This document shows, piece after piece, positions 2,950-51,323 of a stretch of DNA of 64,000 nucleotides (the stretch's first letter is position 1; every line of letters begins with the position of its first letter). The notes under the pieces are model-generated. The model was not told the DNA's origin. It searched no databases and saw only the letters and a list, made by a program, of their open reading frames with translations. This DNA comes from Escherichia coli. GTDB lineage: Bacteria; Pseudomonadota; Gammaproteobacteria; Enterobacterales; Enterobacteriaceae. The stretch lies in assembly GCF_041248615.1 (NCBI RefSeq), contig NZ_CP158426.1. One strand, written 5' to 3'. The position numbers and the translations under genes are program-made.

Positions 2950-4266
2950 ATGGCCGTCAATCTTACTGAAACAGCCATCCGAGCATTGAAAGCAAAAAAG
3001 ACATCGTTCTATGTCTGGAGCAACAGCTCTCAACGTGGCACTGGACGACTTGGTGTCAAAGTTCAGCCTTCTGGCAGCAAGATTTTCTATTTCCGCTATT
3101 ACGTGGAAAAAGGGAAAAAAGAAAGATTCATTCAATTGGGTATATGGCCTGAGATGAAACTGGCCACAGCGAATGAACTGGCAAAAAAGTATGGTGCCTG
3201 GCTCATTGAAGGAAAGGCTCCCCAGGCAGAACTGGAACGACAACAGTTTGCAGAACAGCAGCGGATACAACTCCATCAATCACAGGGCTCATTTGAAGCA
3301 TTGATTCATGGTTATGTTAACAAAATGAAAATTGATAATAAGAGGACATGGCAGGATGTTCTGAAACGCCTTGAAAATGAATGCTATACAGTGATCCCCC
3401 GTGAAACTAAAGCTAAAGATGTGACTTCCGGACAGATTAAACATATCCTGGCCGGGATCATTCAGCGCGGTGCTGTGGTTCACTCTAACCGGATCCGTTC
3501 TTACCTGATGGCTGCATTTAACTATGGACTGAAAGCAGATAACGATCCGATGAACACAAGTGTAGGGATTACTTTTGGGCTGGAGGCAAATCCGGTGTCA
3601 GTGATACCGAAACAGTCATCTGCTGAAAAAGTCGGTGATACCTGGCTGACACTTGAAGAGTTGCGTTTTCTAATGGAACATTTTGCTGAAGCAACCAACG
3701 TTGGATTATTGATGCAACATTTGATCCGATTCTGTATCTATACCGGAGGGCAACGTCCTTTCGAAATGATCGCCAGTCAGTGGTGTGATGTTGATTTTCA
3801 ACAAAAAACGCTGCTGGTGACTGCTGATGTCTCTAAAAATAAACGAGAGCATTTGATACCGTTGACTGAATCAGCATTACAGGAATTATCCTGTGTGCAG
3901 GAGTTAACAAAAGAAAAATCCAGCCCTTACATTTTTCCACTTTCGACTAATGGTAAGCGTCCGGTTCGTACGGACAGTCTGGCTCGCGCTATCATGTATT
4001 TCCGGGCTTTTAATCCTGACTTTAAAATTTTTACAGCACGTGACTTACGTCGGACCTGTAAAACGTTAATGGGAGAAGCTGGGATCAGTAAGGAAATCCG
4101 CGATCGTATTCAAAATCATGCGTTGAACGATGTCAGTTCAAAACATTATGATCGATACGATTATTTGCCAGAAAAACGCAGAGCACTTGAGATCTGGGAG
4201 GACCGGGTTAATAACTATCAACAGCAAACAGGCAATAATGTTGTCAATCTGTTTGGCAGAAGGTGA
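2950..4266 (+). CDS. P4-like tyrosine integrase (N-terminal arm-binding domain plus C-terminal catalytic domain)
   Basis: 438-aa ORF; N-terminus MAVNLTETAIRALKAKK...; C-terminal R...HxxR...Y catalytic residues (DLRRT, NHAL, SKHYDRYDY). Confidence 0.9.
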   Translation: MAVNLTETAIRALKAKKTSFYVWSNSSQRGTGRLGVKVQPSGSKIFYFRYYVEKGKKERFIQLGIWPEMKLATANELAKKYGAWLIEGKAPQAELERQQFAEQQRIQLHQSQGSFEALIHGYVNKMKIDNKRTWQDVLKRLENECYTVIPRETKAKDVTSGQIKHILAGIIQRGAVVHSNRIRSYLMAAFNYGLKADNDPMNTSVGITFGLEANPVSVIPKQSSAEKVGDTWLTLEELRFLMEHFAEATNVGLLMQHLIRFCIYTGGQRPFEMIASQWCDVDFQQKTLLVTADVSKNKREHLIPLTESALQELSCVQELTKEKSSPYIFPLSTNGKRPVRTDSLARAIMYFRAFNPDFKIFTARDLRRTCKTLMGEAGISKEIRDRIQNHALNDVSSKHYDRYDYLPEKRRALEIWEDRVNNYQQQTGNNVVNLFGRR

Positions 4267-4395
4267 GGGAGTTCCTGGTTGCTGTACGAATTGTGTACAA
4301 TTGATGGGTATTGTTGATGCACTTGGTTCTTGTATTGTTTACTATAATTATTGAGGTAAATTTTCGTGCCGGTATTACTCAGAGGGGATTCAAAA

Positions 4396-4992
4396 ATGGC
4401 TGTAATTCCAATGTCTTACTCCCCTGCTACTGTAGCTCGTCGTTTTTCGATACTGGATGGAGTAACTATTCAGGGCGTGCTTTACCAGATCATCTGGGAT
4501 CCAAAGACTCCGTTTGCTGCGGTAATCGAAGCTGCACCTTCTGTTATTGATGGTGATGTTCGCCATAAGGTTGTTGCCACTCTGGAGCTTCAGCGTCGTC
4601 CCCGGCTTGAAGGCGTGTTTGTCCAGAAATTCTGGGAAGAACAGGATGTTGCTCAGATTGAAGGGATTGTTGTCGATGGCGCTGTACGTGATGTTGGTCT
4701 TGCAACGTTTGTTTATGAAACGATAGTCACAAAAGCGGGCGTTGTACTATTAAGTGATAACGAGCAATATGAAGGAGGTAAAGCTCTCTGGCAGCATATT
4801 GCGCGTCGTTCAACGAATCTGAAGGTGTTTATTTTAGATACTGATTCCGCACGGTATTACCCGTTTGATGGCGAACGGATCAGTTATGACGGGAAAAGCA
4901 TCCCGGAATCAGAAATCTGGAGTGAACATCCTGAGCGAAACAGACACGCTGTCGTTCTTGTGGCTGAATCTGTTAATGGTAAAGCCGCATAA
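4396..4992 (+). CDS. Hypothetical protein (198 aa from ATG 4396; ORF open from 4366)
   Basis: Long ORF with plausible RBS (gagggg) upstream of ATG 4396; no recognisable motif. Confidence 0.45.
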   Translation: MAVIPMSYSPATVARRFSILDGVTIQGVLYQIIWDPKTPFAAVIEAAPSVIDGDVRHKVVATLELQRRPRLEGVFVQKFWEEQDVAQIEGIVVDGAVRDVGLATFVYETIVTKAGVVLLSDNEQYEGGKALWQHIARRSTNLKVFILDTDSARYYPFDGERISYDGKSIPESEIWSEHPERNRHAVVLVAESVNGKAA

Positions 4993-5074: not shown

Positions 5075-6679
5075 TTACTGTTCGACCAGACATTTTCCCC
5101 ATAAAGGTCGTATCGAGTATCTATCTTCGCTATATGGATTTATTTTATTTTTTTCCCTCTGTGCTATCAGCAACGTGTCGATCTCATCCTTAATAATGTG
5201 TTGAACTGCTTGACGGTAACGGTTAAGCGAAGTGTCACTGATATCTTGTGGAAGTTGTAGACTGCCATCTGCCTTGACAAGTTCATTCACACCATCTTTA
5301 ATTCTGCGTCCCTGACCATCAGGTATACCTTCATTCAGATCATAGCCTTTTAGTCCTGCAAGACGAATATTCACGTCAATCTTTTCTGTACGTATCTTTT
5401 TGTTACTTACCAACAGAATTTTATTGGCGTTATACCATTTTTCAAATATTTCCAGTTGTTTCATGATGTTTGTGAAGTTATTCAGTTCGCTCCTGAATTC
5501 AATAGATTTTCTAATTTTACGCTCTTTTGCATCAATGTTTATTCCTGGATAATTTATTTCCATTTTTAACGGTTCTGTGTATGCCTGTTGCAGGCAATCA
5601 GCAAGATTCATTGCTGCATCCTGCAGGGTATTGGTATAAATCAGTTTCAGAAGTTCATCACGCTGTATAGTGATTTGACAATAGTCTTTTTCCCATGCGG
5701 TGGTGTTTTCAATCGTGTCACTTTCATCGGAAATAATTGTTGTGAACTTCCAGGTGTAACGAATAAAATCATTTCCTTTAAAATATTGCACTAATTTATT
5801 TAACCATTCATATATTTCCAGAGCATAAAGTTTAACGTATCCATCATATATTATCTTTGTTGCATTTTTGTTGGCTAGCGAAAACATTTTGTCCACGAAT
5901 TCTGTACGCCCGATTGTTAGCAATTGTTTTCTAAGTTTACTCACATCGTTAGTATCTGGTTTCTCACAATTCCAGGGACTTTTGTATTCATTTTCAAAAG
6001 GAGAAAGCCATTCAGGAATCTCTGTTTCTGAGTGATAGCAGTTGTTAATAGCCAAACCAAGGGTTCTGGCAAGTATCGCTGATTCATCAATTTGATGGTA
6101 TCGGTTCAGTTGTTCCAGTAATTCTTTAGTACATGAGTGCGCAACAGAAAGATCCTGATGGCAATATCCTTGTCGAACCAGAGCGGGAAGTGGTGAGCAA
6201 TGAGCTTTACAATCTGTCAGAATATTGAACAAATCGTTTCTGACGAATTCTTCCATCTCAGGTGTTTTCCAGCCACCACTATTTTGGCCGACAAATTTTG
6301 CTGTTGGTTCCCTGTTCATATCTCCCCAGGTTTTCAGGCTGACGAGTCTGTTATCAAAACCATTGTATAAATGGCACATAACCTGAAAAGCAGCATACAG
6401 ATCTTTAGATAGTGGATTATCGGTCTCACTTATGGAGTAGTTCTCTCTGTTTTTCTCTAAAATACTTTGGAGTTTTGTGTTAGCGCGTAATGCCGAGAGA
6501 ATCCGATGTTGTTCATCAAACCAAGGACGATATTCTGGATCCAGATACAATCTGCGTGCTTTGAAAATGAGTAGAAGCAACTGTTCGGAAACAGCTTCAT
6601 GTATGTGGGGAAACGGCATGGAGGTGCCGGATAAAACACGATAGTACGGGTGGTTTGTTTTTACCTTTTTAGTTACCAT
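5075..6679 (-). CDS. Hypothetical 534-aa protein, AT-rich orphan; candidate accessory or defence gene
   Basis: 1.6-kb uninterrupted ORF in strongly AT-rich DNA, where chance ORFs this long are improbable; no Walker A, HTH or nuclease motif identified by eye. Confidence 0.55.
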   Translation of the reverse strand: MVTKKVKTNHPYYRVLSGTSMPFPHIHEAVSEQLLLLIFKARRLYLDPEYRPWFDEQHRILSALRANTKLQSILEKNRENYSISETDNPLSKDLYAAFQVMCHLYNGFDNRLVSLKTWGDMNREPTAKFVGQNSGGWKTPEMEEFVRNDLFNILTDCKAHCSPLPALVRQGYCHQDLSVAHSCTKELLEQLNRYHQIDESAILARTLGLAINNCYHSETEIPEWLSPFENEYKSPWNCEKPDTNDVSKLRKQLLTIGRTEFVDKMFSLANKNATKIIYDGYVKLYALEIYEWLNKLVQYFKGNDFIRYTWKFTTIISDESDTIENTTAWEKDYCQITIQRDELLKLIYTNTLQDAAMNLADCLQQAYTEPLKMEINYPGINIDAKERKIRKSIEFRSELNNFTNIMKQLEIFEKWYNANKILLVSNKKIRTEKIDVNIRLAGLKGYDLNEGIPDGQGRRIKDGVNELVKADGSLQLPQDISDTSLNRYRQAVQHIIKDEIDTLLIAQREKNKINPYSEDRYSIRPLWGKCLVEQ

Positions 6680-7458
6680 AATGTTAAATTCTTCCGTCTA
6701 TTGCATAGCTGTTTCCAGTAGAGAAACTTGATACAGTCCTTTGTCAGGACATTGATACAGAGTTAACAGCCTCTACGAAATGGGAATCAGTTATGCAGTG
6801 GCATTATACGATGCTGAATCTAATACGATATCCTTAGCGTTTATTCCTGATTTTTTTACGAGCATTCCCTTTTGTTGCATATTGCTCAGGACGCAAATGA
6901 TTTTACGGTTATAGCCCTCTACAGTCACGTCACTTTCATCTGAAAATATGTATCGTTTTCATTCAATTATTATCTTTTGTCTGCACTTTAGCTTTAGAAA
7001 GTTGGCAAAAATCAACTCCCTCTTACAAGTTCTATTATCGCCAGAAGATAATTTTGTGAACTTCGTCACGTTTTCAAACTAATGTTGTGGGGGCTTTTCT
7101 GGGGAGAATTTTTGGTCACTACCCCTCCTCTTGATATCATAGATTATAACAAGATTTTTTTTGTTTTTGTCTGCATAAAATAACCTACGAATATTGTGAT
7201 TTTGATTTTTATTTTGTATACCAAAAAGCATTGTTTAAGTTATTTTTATATTGTGACTTTCTTTGTTGTTATTGTGTTATTAGAAGTCAGTTAATTAAAT
7301 CATTTCTCGCAATTTGATTTCTTGGTTGTGCAAATGTATTGTTTTGCTCGTGAGTTGCTGGTGCTGTTCAACAGCATACCACTACAGATAGATGTAGTGA
7401 TTTGAGCAGCTCACATGCATATACAATCTGAAAATCATGAATATATAAGGAGAGCAAT

Positions 7459-7686
7459 ATGTGGAAGCCGTTAAGAGATGAGAACCGTTTATCAATTTTG
7501 AAGATCTATGGATACACCTGTGACAGACTGGTACGAGAAAAGGAACGCCAGAAAATTACGTCTATTTCTCGTTCACAAGCCTGGAAACTGGAACGTGAAG
7601 GAAAATTCCCGCCACGTAAAACTATTGGAAAGAAATCCTGTGGGTGGTTATTAAGTGATCTATTGTGGTGGATTAGTCAGTATTAA
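7459..7686 (+). CDS. AlpA-family phage regulatory/excisionase-like DNA-binding protein
   Basis: 75 aa; AGGAG RBS; HTH plus EREGKFPPRK..G.....W...L..W motif typical of AlpA/Phage_AlpA. Confidence 0.7.
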   Translation: MWKPLRDENRLSILKIYGYTCDRLVREKERQKITSISRSQAWKLEREGKFPPRKTIGKKSCGWLLSDLLWWISQY

Positions 7687-7748
7687 CCTTATAGTATCAG
7701 AATAATATATATTTCTATATTTTAATTTTATAATTAAAAAGGAGTTTC

Positions 7749-8495
7749 ATGATGAAACGTGTCTCTTTCTCTCTTGCAGAAACATATGAAGCTGATGTAA
7801 TTAAAAAGTATCAGCATTTAAAAAAATGCTCATTTTCAGCAGCGATTAAAGAGTGTTTAAAGCTAGGGGCTCCTGTTTTAAACAGGATAAATGAAAATAT
7901 TGCTGCTATAACTGATATAGAGGATAAGCTACGTCAGTTTTTTAATGAGGAACCATTTGTGCAACGGACAAAGCCTGAAATAACAAAAGGAGAGTTTTTT
8001 CATAGCATTTATAAATCGCATATCAAATATGAATATGATGTTCTCGATAGAAAGATATTTCCTCATGAAAGCACCAGAAATGCTATGGGAGTTGCAGAGA
8101 AAAAGGGAATTAAAGAGAATGCGACCTTAATGCTGGAATATTATAAAGTTGAGAAGGCAATTTGTATTTACACGAACAGAAAAGTTTCCCATACCCTGAA
8201 TCGTGCAGGAGGGTTTTATAAAACCATTCTGATTAAAACCAGTGTTTTTGGGGATTATTTTTTTGACTTTTGCAATTCAGTTTGCCTGCCGATAGATGAG
8301 TTGATTGAGTATGGTACGAAAGAAACAGTGAGGCGACATCAGATTCGTAGTACAGGATTTTGTACTTTTCATATTCCGATTTTTTATATCAATAATAAGG
8401 CTGTAATAGTGCCTGTTCTGAGAACAGAGGAAGTTTCACAAAGTTCCAGAACAGGTGGAGATGTTATTATTATTAACCCATTTGAAGATGAATGA
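7749..8495 (+). CDS. Hypothetical 248-aa protein (possible N-terminal ribbon-helix-helix-like segment)
   Basis: ORF with AAGGAG RBS in AT-rich DNA; N-terminus KRVSFSLAETYEADVIKKY resembles RHH regulators; remainder unassigned. Confidence 0.5.
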   Translation: MMKRVSFSLAETYEADVIKKYQHLKKCSFSAAIKECLKLGAPVLNRINENIAAITDIEDKLRQFFNEEPFVQRTKPEITKGEFFHSIYKSHIKYEYDVLDRKIFPHESTRNAMGVAEKKGIKENATLMLEYYKVEKAICIYTNRKVSHTLNRAGGFYKTILIKTSVFGDYFFDFCNSVCLPIDELIEYGTKETVRRHQIRSTGFCTFHIPIFYINNKAVIVPVLRTEEVSQSSRTGGDVIIINPFEDE

Positions 8496-23271: not shown

Positions 23272-23598
23272 ATGACTAAAAATACTCGTTTTTCCCCCGA
23301 AGTCCGTCAGAGGGCGATTCGTATGGTTCTGGAAAGTCAGGGCGAATATGACTCACAGTGGGCGGCAATTTGTTCCATTGCCCCAAAGATTGGCTGTACA
23401 CCGGAGACTCTGCGTGTCTGGGTGCGCCAGCATGAGCGGGATACCGGAGGCGGTGATGGCGGGCTCACCACCGCTGAACGTCAGCGTCTGAAAGAGCTGG
23501 AACGTGAAAATCGTGAACTGCGCCGCAGTAACGATATCCTTCGCCAGGCTTCCGCTTATTTTGCGAAGGTGGAGTTCGACCGCCTCTGGAAAAAGTGA
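23272..23598 (+). CDS. IS629-like OrfA (HTH transposase subunit)
   Basis: 108 aa [21 protein letters not shown]...; leucine-zipper region; overlaps orfB in the -1 frame. Confidence 0.8.
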
Positions 23599-24012
23599 TG
23601 CCACTGCTGGATAAGCTGCGTAAGCTGTACGGGGTCGGACCGGTATGCAGTGAACTACATATTGCCCCGTCAACGTATTACCACTGTCAGCAACAGCGAC
23701 ATCATCCTGATAAACGCAGTGCCCGTGCGCAGCGCGATGACTGGCTGAAGAAAGAGATACTGCGCGTATACGATGGGAATCATCAGGTATACGGTGTGCG
23801 TAAAGTCTGGCGTCAGTTGTTACGGGAAGGAATCAGGGTAGCCAGATGTACAGTGGCGCGCCTCATGGCGGTTATGGGACTTGCCGGTGTTCTCCGGGGT
23901 AAAAAGGTCCGCACTACCGTCAGCCGGAAAGCCGTTGCCGCAGGCGACCGCGTAAACCGTCAGTTTGTGGCAGAACGTCCTGACCAGTTGTGGGTGGCTG
24001 ATTTTACTTACG
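23595..24012 (+). pseudogene. IS629-like OrfB, interrupted after ...QLWVADFTY by a group II intron
   Basis: Transposase homology ends at 24012; intron consensus GTGTG follows at 24013. Confidence 0.7.
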
Positions 24013-26769
<2,757 letters not shown>

Positions 26770-42753: not shown

Positions 42754-42871
42754 ACACTCTGCCAGGGGAAATGCCTGATTACATTGCGTTAACCAACTGA
42801 AAACATGACACAAACACCTCATACCCACCTCTTTCTCTTGCGTGACTGCCTTGCTGTTAATAGAATAAAAC

Positions 42872-42907
42872 GATCGATAAAACAGGTATCGATCGTTGTA
42901 ATCGATC
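42872..42907. promoter_or_regulatory. Three GATC sites in the agn43 regulatory region (Dam/OxyR phase-variation switch)
   Basis: GATC at 42872, 42891 and 42904 within aacGATCgataaaacaggtatcGATCgttgtaatcGATCgtt, about 220 bp upstream of the antigen 43 start. Confidence 0.6.
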
Positions 42908-43124
42908 GTTTATGGTGGTTAATGGTCTGCGAAAAGGCAGCTGAATCTCTTCATCATGCAGAACGGAATTGCACACAACGGACTGATACTTCTCTGGCGG
43001 ATGAGAGAGGGGAAGCATTTATGTCCGGGAAAAACCACTTTATCTGACCATGCTGTTTTGTACCTGCCGGTATCCACATTTGTGGGTACCGGCTTTTTTA
43101 TTCACCCTCTGTAAGGAAAAGCTG

Positions 43125-51122: not shown

Positions 51123-51198
51123 ATGGTGGCCCCTGTTGGGTTTGAACCAACGACCAAGCGATTATGAGTCGCCTGCTCTAACCACTGAGCTAAGGGGC
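51123..51198 (-). tRNA. ileX: tRNA-Ile2 (anticodon CAU, lysidine-modified), attL side of the island
   Basis: 76-nt cloverleaf GGCCCCTTAGCTCAGTGGTTAGAGCAGGCGACTCATAATCGCTTGGTCGTTGGTTCAAACCCAACAGGGGCCACCA with encoded CCA; K-12 position between mug and yqjH. Confidence 0.9.
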
Positions 51199-51323
51199 CA
51201 TGGTAGCGGATTATAAAGTAACTCCGTGTCGCAATCCAGCCATTACCGCGCGCCTGCTGTTTTTATAAACAATGTATTTTCAATCCGTTATACTTTTCCT
51301 GGTGATGTTAGAAAGGAGTAAAT

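Follow-up and report, generated by a model that had tools for sequence, protein, structure and literature searches.

An AT-rich non-coding gap upstream of alpA in an Escherichia coli mobile island holds one promoter-like site per strand at conserved positions

In Gram-negative PICIs such as EcCICFT073 and EcCIMP1, an integrase gene precedes a co-oriented AlpA-family gene, and a few hundred base pairs of non-coding DNA upstream of alpA carry the alpA promoter. In E. coli PICIs, this promoter region is induced by helper phage and positively autoregulated (PMC6092414; PMC11773190, reporter from -449 to +50). In the K-12 element CP4-57 (intA-yfjH-alpA-yfjI-yfjJ), the interval between the integrase gene and alpA is a variable cargo slot. 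The satellite P4 has a late left promoter, PLL, upstream of vis, which is activated by delta/Ogr through a TGT-N12-ACA dyad. In related satellites AlpA serves as the master switch, and what induces its promoter is, to our knowledge, not known; a short conserved inverted repeat near that promoter is therefore a cheap target for mutagenesis. We likewise know of no defined operator or inducer for the PICI PalpA, and thus the motifs described below are not comparable with PalpA.

We analyzed a 64-kb stretch of Escherichia coli contig NZ_CP158426.1 (assembly GCF_041248615.1), referred to as the window. It contains an island, absent from K-12, with an integrase gene (int, 2950-4266, plus strand) and an AlpA-family gene in the same orientation, separated in part by a long non-coding gap in which an alpA promoter is predicted, as in the PICIs. 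It differs from them in lacking a pri-rep/DUF3987 gene, in place of which stand orf248 and the HTH gene orf186, and in having no recognized packaging genes; its relatives do carry a DUF3987 gene (468-477 aa). Searches of the island for the cos sites of lambda/phi80 and P2/P4, the latter within set mismatch limits, were negative, and no sid, psu or delta domain appeared in a domain scan of the island proteins. The backbone shared by the relatives (integrase, leftward cargo, alpA, an approximately 470-aa DUF3987 protein and an approximately 205-aa YagK/YfjJ protein) has the same order as that of CP4-57, and both elements use the stretch between int and alpA as a variable cargo slot. The window island has two genes with YagK/YfjJ domains and no YfjI-like gene. 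CP4-57 differs in its location (at ssrA, whereas the window island adjoins nfeF), in yfjH, which is unrelated to orf534, and in AlpA, the K-12 protein matching that of the window over 28 residues only, at 36% identity. The yfjH-alpA gap is only 43 bp, so a long gap is not required for alpA control. CP4-57 was considered as a data-rich proxy and rejected, since with so short a gap and so distant an AlpA the K-12 data are not transferable.

The gap is bounded exactly by the start codons of orf534, on the minus strand, and alpA. Our reading is that two back-to-back modules, one serving alpA to the right and the other orf534 to the left, make up a divergent control region, and we consider this somewhat better than an even bet. 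The gap is most likely an ordinary regulatory spacer, not a new kind of element. Its features, and those of its neighbors, are as follows.

5075-6679, minus strand: orf534, an uncharacterized 534-aa cargo gene, served by the left half of the gap.
6680-7458, no strand: the whole non-coding gap, 779 bp, GC 0.34, with no credible or conserved ORF.
6680-7136, minus strand: predicted orf534 leader of approximately 457 nt, purine-rich on the RNA strand.
7055-7070, no strand: palindrome TGTGA-ACTTCG-TCACG, matching 9/10 of the CRP core TGTGA-N6-TCACA.
7130-7345, no strand: AT-rich, fast-evolving core between two predicted divergent transcription starts.
7143-7151, minus strand: predicted leftward promoter P_L, extended -10 TGtTATAAT, with positional homology in three lineages.
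7193-7216, no strand: ATTTTG in four copies, a weak repeat (TRF score 34) judged non-functional.
7254-7289, no strand: inverted repeat (TGACT-N26-AGTCA) positioned 24 bp before the alpA -35 hexamer; an activator or AlpA is the candidate binder.
7314-7342, plus strand: predicted weak sigma-70 alpA promoter, -35 TTGATT (7314-7319), 17-bp spacer, -10 TATTGT (7337-7342).
7349-7458, plus strand: predicted alpA leader of approximately 110 nt, Shine-Dalgarno AAGGAG at 7447-7452, with a hairpin of the window lineage at 7350-7414.
7459-7686, plus strand: alpA, an AlpA-family gene (PF05930, E = 2.5e-14; phrog_2790, excisionase and transcriptional regulator).

The gap is truly non-coding, AT-rich DNA in a mobile island. 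The original prediction that it has no credible ORF was borne out: the longest stop-to-stop frame spans at most 55 codons, no stop-to-stop fragment of the gap matched Pfam, and the small ORFs are disrupted or changed by 1-bp and 4-bp indels and by substitutions in sister E. coli strains (97-98.6% identical). Of 5426 complete E. coli genomes, 259 carry the gap at ≥97% identity, and it is annotated in none of them. It had also been called highly AT-rich, which is accurate for the core (GC 0.24 over 7130-7330) and not for the remainder, whose GC of 0.37-0.38 differs little from the 0.40 averaged over the island. The gap as a whole falls in the lowest 1% of 779-bp segments across the window (average GC 0.51). 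The AT-rich peak extends rightward past the gap, with a GC of 0.16 in the spacer downstream of alpA and 0.345 in the next gene. The multiple A/T tracts that had been reported are real (21 runs of at least 4, compared with 13.7 ± 3.2 in shuffled sequences).

Conservation was followed at two depths. Six sister strains, 97-100% identical, gave the variation within the lineage. Diverged copies in E. coli genomes were not found by blastn, which over those genomes showed no DNA similarity to other E. coli islands, so relatives were reached through their proteins; an AlpA scan of genome contigs gave four loci, of which one (E. albertii) was useful. A search of phage DNA gave no match. Relatives from E. 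coli, E. albertii and E. marmotae share the arrangement int-orf198-orf540(minus)-gap-alpA, their gaps measuring 690-780 bp. Conservation among related islands, the lack of which was to refute the original prediction, holds for short motifs and fails for the bulk sequence. Aligned identity in the gap is 30-45%, the minimum of the locus, whereas int and orf198 reach 93-100% and orf540 and alpA 65-80%. Among the six sister strains, 11.6% of columns vary in the core and 1.4-2.1% in the flanking genes; in the second lineage, the most variable DNA is the approximately 130 bp just upstream of the alpA -35 (57-73% identity, flanks >90%). This within-lineage variation spares every motif of a skeleton, TGACY-N16/26-AGTCA-N22-24-TTGAyy-N17-TAnnnT-116..123 nt-ATG, and is concentrated between the motifs. 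The skeleton is present in 13/13 loci, essentially once in each. Two promoter-like sites, one per strand, hold their positions in three diverged lineages while the DNA around them changes. As part of the divergent-control reading, and with the same slight preference that we give to it as a whole, the AT-rich core is simply fast-evolving DNA between two predicted promoters.

H-NS preferentially binds AT-rich, horizontally acquired DNA in E. coli, and the gap has the corresponding composition (AT 66%, and 76% in the core, well above the window average). The gap could thus be mainly a patch for H-NS nucleation and silencing, in which the island promoters, spurious ones included, are silenced and the short conserved motifs are incidental. 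We regard this as a serious competitor that falls short of even odds. The modest enrichment of A/T runs agrees with it, as do the many promoter-like hexamers on both strands, which are typical of AT-rich horizontally acquired DNA. The high-affinity H-NS motif TCGATAAATT, tested as tCGATAAATT, has no match within 2 mismatches in the gap, however, and helical phasing is not significant. AA/TT periodicity at 8-14 bp did not exceed that of shuffled sequences (best at 11 bp, p ~0.07, uncorrected for 13 periods), and A-tracts were not significantly phased, so a check for curvature, proposed with the original prediction, gave nothing at 10-11 bp. The "phased short repeats" described earlier did not survive either. 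Tandem Repeats Finder reported only the ATTTTG array in the gap, which had served as the example; other strains of the same lineage have three substitutions there (7192, 7196, 7198), and the array was not found in related islands. Because the whole island is AT-rich (60%), the gap is undistinguished within it and is not, by sequence, a special nucleation point. H-NS coating also leaves unexplained a strict palindrome with a free spacer and an inverted repeat whose spacing shifts by exactly 10 bp. H-NS may well coat the AT-rich core; this is compatible with divergent promoters and does not replace them. As first posed, the finding was routine, namely an AT-rich island spacer that is perhaps bound by H-NS.

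On the reading of the gap as a divergent control region, its left module (approximately 6680-7151) would belong to orf534 and consist of an extended -10 promoter and a long leader with the CRP-consensus palindrome. The orf534 product matched nothing in Pfam, NCBIfam, PADLOC or PHROG, and its confident AF2 model (pLDDT 79.8) has no fold match in PDB or BFVD. Homologues with 33-61% identity occur in Enterobacterales, among them a moron between tail genes S and V of P2-type prophages. Leftward transcription is predicted to start at approximately 7136. By position, P_L corresponds to TTGACA-17-TAGTAT (10/12 in the scan, 12.6 bits) in the second lineage and to TTGACT-17-TATAAA in locus L029. Sister strains with a substitution at 7145 read TATGAT, which is still -10-like. 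A second candidate leftward promoter, GTGACT-17-TAAAAT (6928-6900), lies within the leader. Indels that are not multiples of 3 among the relatives indicate that the leader is non-coding, and no terminator-like site was found in the gap.

No TGTGA-N6-TCAC other than the palindrome occurs in the 64-kb window, and its chance expectation is approximately 7e-4 per gap by our own base-composition calculation. Set against E. coli cAMP-CRP sites (consensus AAATGTGATCTAGATCACATTT), its core matches at 9/10 positions in the window and at 10/10 in one sister strain, where G7070A gives TCACA, and in most relatives (7/8 related loci checked, each with a free 6-bp spacer; L025 has the one-base variant TGTAA). 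Most variants have T at position 9, and the arms are kept. The flanks are TTT/AAA, whereas those of the consensus are AAA/TTT. The palindrome also precedes the orf534 homologues of P2-type prophages and of Serratia, giving five independent lineages or contexts, and is absent upstream of alpA in islands with other cargo. Copies of the cargo gene in K. pneumoniae P2 prophages lack it despite homologous flanks, so it is dispensable. Its center (7062.5) falls at +67 to +74 relative to the predicted start of P_L and at approximately -286 relative to that of alpA. Known sites activate from positions such as -41.5, -61.5 or -71.5 (class I/II); the palindrome occupies none of these with respect to either conserved promoter and is downstream of the predicted P_L. 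Other promoter candidates are positionally inconsistent. A literature search on CRP control of alpA or of excision found nothing relevant. We propose that the palindrome most likely binds cAMP-CRP as DNA and would thereby modulate leftward transcription, which hints that orf534 expression may be linked to the metabolic state of the host. The GTG inside the palindrome opens a mini-ORF (MTKITKIN in relatives), which was rejected as an explanation; the spacer varies at all codon positions while the arms are fixed, and neither length nor context is kept.

A transcribed palindrome could instead work as RNA, with TGTGA-N6-TCACA forming a hairpin in the orf534 leader (a stabilizer or a protein-binding stem-loop). 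In every context the best predicted promoters are upstream of it (+38 to +90), so that it would be transcribed, and in the P2-prophage and Serratia copies it precedes the Shine-Dalgarno sequence by approximately 5-10 nt. Complementarity reaches past the CRP core (AATTTGTGA / TCACAAATT), and the distance to either conserved promoter is wrong for CRP activation. These points are countered by the arms, which are invariant and show no compensatory change amid surroundings that cannot be aligned; this suggests sequence-specific recognition instead of selection on pairing alone. The stem is also weak, rich in A-U and G-U pairs, and the motif is exactly the CRP core in hosts that are all Enterobacterales, which have CRP. 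A hairpin function is unlikely, in our estimate by about three to one.

In the divergent arrangement that we prefer, the right module (approximately 7137-7458) would be the alpA control region, comprising a weak promoter, an upstream inverted repeat and a leader of approximately 110 nt that ends in a conserved RBS. The original prediction had placed promoters in the gap, and comparison across lineages upholds this as one promoter-like site per strand, its position kept in three diverged lineages. All 13 related loci have TTGAyy-N17-TAnnnT at a distance of 116-123 nt from the ATG, as TTGACT-17-TACCTT or TTGACC-17-TACATT in relatives, and both hexamers are invariant in sister strains. With hexamers 16-18 bp apart resembling TTGACA/TATAAT as the sigma-70 standard, TTGATT-17-TATTGT is a weak match: the window promoter scores 8/12, below the scan threshold, and that of L029 scores 9/12. 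The hexamers being weak, and the number of promoter-like matches in these AT-rich gaps no higher than in shuffled sequences, the case for the promoter is one of positional conservation across three deep lineages only. Transcription of alpA is predicted to start at approximately 7349.

The half-sites of the inverted repeat (TGACT, 7254-7258; AGTCA, 7285-7289) are invariant in sister strains, where the spacer varies. The repeat occurs once in the 64-kb window and essentially once per related locus. The window and L029 have an N26 spacer and the second lineage has N16, which is shorter by exactly 10 bp or one helical turn; the spacer sequence is free, and the half-sites would stay on one face of the helix. 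A weak promoter with an upstream inverted repeat fits an activator-dependent promoter of the PICI kind. By analogy with the characterized Gram-negative PICIs, the alpA promoter probably has low activity until an activator induces it, for which AlpA itself and/or a helper-phage protein would be the candidates at the inverted repeat. Once activated, the promoter would drive alpA and the downstream genes. The P4 promoter PLL offers a similar design, with an AlpA/Vis-type first gene in the operon, a weak activator-dependent promoter (predicted here), an activator at an upstream dyad (a candidate here) and a promoter divergent from another. The dyad is different, TGACY-N16/26-AGTCA centered at approximately -72 to -78 instead of TGT-N12-ACA at approximately -55. 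The sole TGT-N12-ACA in the gap (6742-6759) is far from both promoters and not conserved, unlike the arrangement expected of a P2/P4 late promoter under Ogr/delta. Because the window island lacks the DUF3987 primase-like gene of its relatives, its alpA circuit may be decaying, which counts against the model.

The comparative map places an alpA promoter and a candidate operator, both predicted, in a family of E. coli integrative islands. It also assigns the leftward half to an orphan cargo gene that is widespread and occupies phage and satellite accessory slots, and with which a CRP-type palindrome travels. There is a small chance that the gap holds two undescribed portable devices together, a TGTGA-N6-TCACA cassette and a TGACY-N16/26-AGTCA operator that preserves helical phase; we put it well below that of an RNA hairpin. 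If so, the cassette would travel with a fast-evolving cargo gene of approximately 540 aa among CP4-57/PICI-like islands, P2-type prophages and Serratia, and would tie it to cAMP-CRP from within the leader, an unusual downstream position. The operator would respond to AlpA or a helper-phage activator and would be a candidate for the undefined input site of Gram-negative satellite induction. Current understanding is unchanged unless experiments confirm these proposals.

The alpA leader bears on a further alternative, that the gap encodes an unrecognized small RNA, as had been suggested. A long non-coding stretch of conserved length with conserved promoters could accommodate one, and the window-lineage hairpin at 7350-7414 is more stable than expected (z = -3.1). 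The folds of the relatives are no better than those of shuffled sequences, and the sequence is poorly conserved. An alignment fold of the leader gave 87% pairing and six compensatory pairs, a weak covariation from an alignment dominated by one lineage. Rfam 15 gave no match in the gap at the gathering threshold in a search of the whole window, and only chance-level hits at E up to 10 over 6500-7800; with no terminator-like site in the gap of the window either, we consider a small RNA very improbable. The leader has two variable sites in 110 nt among sister strains, and the block AATCAT..ATATAT.AGGAG is kept in all lineages.

Slighter still is the likelihood that the AT-rich core, with three TATTGTG copies on one strand (7192, 7249, 7271), is a replication origin or an array for excisionase binding. 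Xis-type proteins bind T/G-rich direct repeats, a resemblance only, and YagK/YfjJ (Gp2/Rep-like) genes lie downstream. Yet the first copy (7192) is mutated in sister strains, the repeats are lineage- or strain-specific and missing from related islands, and the repeats considered as iterons are weak two-copy families, conserved neither in sister strains nor in relatives; the earlier suggestion of origin-like sequence is not sustained. The island also lacks a primase-like gene, the relatives offer a better origin candidate in another long non-coding stretch, located past their DUF3987 gene, and attP would be expected beside int. Least probable of all is a decayed protein-coding gene: islands with an AlpA of approximately 70% identity do carry a gene of 145 aa or 325-347 aa here, ending approximately 107-343 bp before alpA, but searching the gap and its relatives with those proteins by tblastn gave E = 0.09 at best (in a tiny database), no stop-to-stop fragment gave a Pfam signal, gap length is kept in three lineages without a shared ORF, and the left part is homologous in role to the DNA found upstream of orf534 in other contexts.

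A search of plasmid DNA returned a single match, a linear 11.7-kb record labeled as a Salmonella plasmid. It is not an excised circle and in fact contains aer-nfeR-nfeF together with the same island.

The island is inserted directly past nfeF (yqjH) in the E. coli chromosome and carries the following features. After alpA come, in order, orf248, the HTH protein orf186, two YagK/YfjJ-domain genes and an IS3-family transposase.

2950-4266, plus strand: tyrosine integrase (int) with an arm-binding domain
4366-4992, plus strand: orf198/208, PHROG 7522, an uncharacterised family
5075-6679, minus strand: orf534, uncharacterised
6680-7458: the gap, intergenic between orf534 and alpA
7459-7686, plus strand: AlpA-family gene (alpA; PF05930, E = 2.5e-14)

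The region singled out by the original prediction coincides exactly with the intergenic gap, and its description as non-coding and AT-rich stands because of the GC, ORF, Pfam and sister-strain indel checks. The 779 bp have a GC content of 0.34 (island mean, 0.40; window, 0.51), hold no ORF longer than 55 codons from stop to stop and give no Pfam signal. In sister strains (E. coli of the same lineage, 97-98.6% identical), indels and substitutions break or change the small ORFs of the gap. Of 5426 complete E. coli genomes, 259 carry the gap at an identity of at least 97%, and it is unannotated in every one of them. "Highly" AT-rich applies to a 200-bp core alone (7130-7330, GC 0.24), and the proposed multiple A/T tracts amount to a modest enrichment (21 runs vs 13.7 ± 3.2 in shuffles). 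The claim of phased short repeats was not borne out: AA/TT periodicity in the gap does not rise above shuffles, TRF reports only ATTTTG x4 (score 34), and the repeat quoted as an example has three substitutions in the other strains of the lineage. At 16% GC, the 62-bp alpA-orf248 spacer (7687-7748) is richer in AT than anywhere else in the locus, the gap included.

Protein-anchored searches recovered relatives of the island in E. coli, E. albertii and E. marmotae, all laid out as int-orf198-orf~540(minus)-gap-alpA-DUF3987-(YagK/YfjJ), with a gap that is always 690-780 bp long at a GC content of 0.33-0.39. The cryptic prophage CP4-57 of K-12 has the same backbone (intA-yfjH-alpA-yfjI-yfjJ), and the int-then-alpA order is likewise that of Gram-negative PICIs (PMC6092414). 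A sliding comparison showed the gap to be conserved less than any other part of the locus; identities between the window and its relatives are as follows.

int and orf198: 93-100%
orf540: 65-75%, mosaic
alpA: 72-80%
gap: 30-45%

Among strains of the window's lineage, variable columns make up 5.3% of the gap (11.6% of 7130-7345) vs 1.4-2.1% of the neighbouring genes. Relatives nearly identical to the window in int and orf198/208 lie much further from it in orf540, gap and alpA, which points to recombination breakpoints near the orf540 3' end. In more distant AlpA islands a protein gene occupies the position of the gap; the gap as a relic of that gene was rejected after comparison.

Conservation among related islands, the lack of which would have counted against the original prediction, is poor over the bulk of the gap; on the alpA side it takes the form of a skeleton of short motifs. 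The pattern TGACY-N16 or N26-AGTCA-N22-24-TTGAyy-N17-TAnnnT-116-123 nt-ATG is present in 13 of 13 loci from three lineages (the window's own, a second lineage and that of locus L029), with a single occurrence in the 64-kb window and essentially one in each related locus. Its elements in the window are these.

7254-7258: TGACT half-site
7285-7289: AGTCA half-site
7314-7319, plus strand: TTGATT, predicted -35
7337-7342, plus strand: TATTGT, predicted -10

The DNA between these motifs is hypervariable, and variation within a lineage leaves all of them untouched. One lineage has a dyad spacer of 16 bp and the other two have 26 bp, a difference of one helical turn that matches expectation for a protein-binding dyad. 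The weak promoter hexamers would fit an activator-dependent alpA promoter; in those E. coli PICIs that have been characterised, both the helper phage and AlpA itself activate the region upstream of alpA (PMC6092414; PMC11773190). The predicted alpA start lies near 7349, giving a leader of ~110 nt with two variable sites within the lineage. This leader folds stably in the window alone (z = -3.1); the folds of relatives do not surpass shuffles, and the covariation signal is weak.

A predicted promoter reading leftward, toward orf534, lies at a corresponding position in all three lineages.

7143-7151, minus strand: TGtTATAAT extended -10 (reverse complement), the window version
Second lineage, leftward: TTGACA-17-TAGTAT, 10/12 in the promoter scan
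L029, leftward: TTGACT-17-TATAAA, a positional match
6928-6900, minus strand: second candidate leftward promoter, from the promoter scan

The predicted leftward start, near 7136, is ~213 bp from that of alpA, and the two flank the AT-rich core. No terminator-like site was found downstream on the minus strand in the gap, and the leftward transcript probably runs ~457 nt into orf534. Our preferred reading of the gap is two regulatory modules back to back: on the left the promoter and leader of the cargo gene orf534, which would have been imported with it; on the right the alpA promoter and its upstream dyad; and between them a fast-evolving core that would be inter-promoter DNA. Every transcription start, binding protein and regulatory outcome named here is a prediction from sequence comparison across only three deep lineages, together with the cargo gene's other contexts.

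The sole long motif common to all lineages is a palindrome, TTTTGTGA-N6-TCAC(A/G), at 7055-7070, ~70 bp downstream of the predicted leftward start. Across lineages the arms stay constant and the spacer is free, and no second such site exists in the 64-kb window. Homologues of orf534 (33-61% identity, Enterobacterales) occupy, in K. pneumoniae and IMG/VR contigs, the interval separating tail genes S and V in P2-type prophages, an accessory-gene slot; in Serratia the homologue stands alone beside an IS110-family element. In several of these unrelated contexts TGTGA-N6-TCACA recurs upstream, preceded by very AT-rich DNA, its centre only ~22 nt before the ATG in non-island contexts; in K. pneumoniae copies it is lost from flanks that are still homologous. 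Because the palindrome accompanies the family in unrelated contexts, is absent from islands with other int-alpA cargo, and lies downstream of the best predicted promoter in every context, sequence comparison identifies it as a leader element of the orf534 family.

In most relatives the palindrome is a perfect match to the CRP core (9 of 10 positions in the window, whose right arm ends in G; one sister strain has a perfect TCACA), and all hosts of the family have CRP. It does not sit at a CRP activation distance from the promoter, and it could equally work as an RNA stem-loop. The arms show no compensatory change, which favours sequence-specific recognition, and we therefore rank a putative CRP binding site first and a hairpin second. 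To the right of the palindrome by ~58 bp, another GGTCAC stands in the window with CCCCTCC after it (7113-7129), resembling the DNA directly after the palindrome in relatives (e.g., locus L004, 3614-3640). This suggests an insertion or duplication of ~50 bp in the window's lineage, and the extra GGTCAC accounts for two minus-strand mini-ORFs starting MTK. A 9-mer, TTGATACAG, is present twice in the DNA 49-80 bp ahead of the orf534 start codon, at 6728-6736 and 6751-6759 (copies starting 23 bp apart); relatives keep just the second copy, as GTTGATACTGAG.

The orf534 product matched nothing in Pfam, NCBIfam, PADLOC or PHROG, and its confident all-alpha model (pLDDT 79.8) matched no fold in PDB or BFVD. 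The gene may act against phages or in exclusion. Among relatives it is mosaic and locally hypervariable, dipping to 54-63% identity inside stretches above 90%; as a moron between S and V its homologue is partnered by a divergent acidic protein of ~145 aa.

Of the roles first proposed for the gap, H-NS coating is plausible from composition and compatible with two modules, and no sequence feature marking a nucleation site was found in it. A small RNA and an origin-like sequence gained no support from the analysis, nor did a cos site or a P2/P4-type late promoter. The ~0.9 kb of non-coding DNA past the DUF3987 (YfjI-like) gene in relatives (L011, 5758-6714, with equivalents in L012, L013 and L030) is a better replication-origin candidate. 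The gap is a real feature but an ordinary one, most likely serving a CP4-57/PICI-like island as its control region. What is modestly interesting and testable about it is the conserved dyad, along with a CRP-type palindrome that travels with the cargo gene.

IS activity is eroding the island in E. coli E105 (L003, 7001-8385), where an IS3-family element is inserted 130 bp into the gap and pitB-side chromosome replaces all DNA rightward, from alpA onward. In L014 and L015, a 5'-truncated alpA is abutted by IS1 and the segment is inverted. A linear 11.7-kb record named 'Salmonella enterica plasmid pIndS102_4' (L002, CP101363.1) holds aer, nfeR, nfeF and the island, with a 779-bp gap 100% identical to that of the window; this record seems to be a chromosomal contig of E. 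coli, misassigned or a contaminant, and neither plasmid nor excised element. Elsewhere in the window, Rfam reports an ALIL frameshift pseudoknot (IS3 family), a group II intron catalytic domain and IS102 RNA, and ARAGORN and Rfam a tRNA with anticodon CAT (features at 23553-23669, 26196-26282, 42870-43106 and 51124-51199). By synteny with K-12, where ileX adjoins yqjH/nfeF, this tRNA is probably ileX; if so, nfeF and the tRNA are separated by ~48 kb of mobile DNA.
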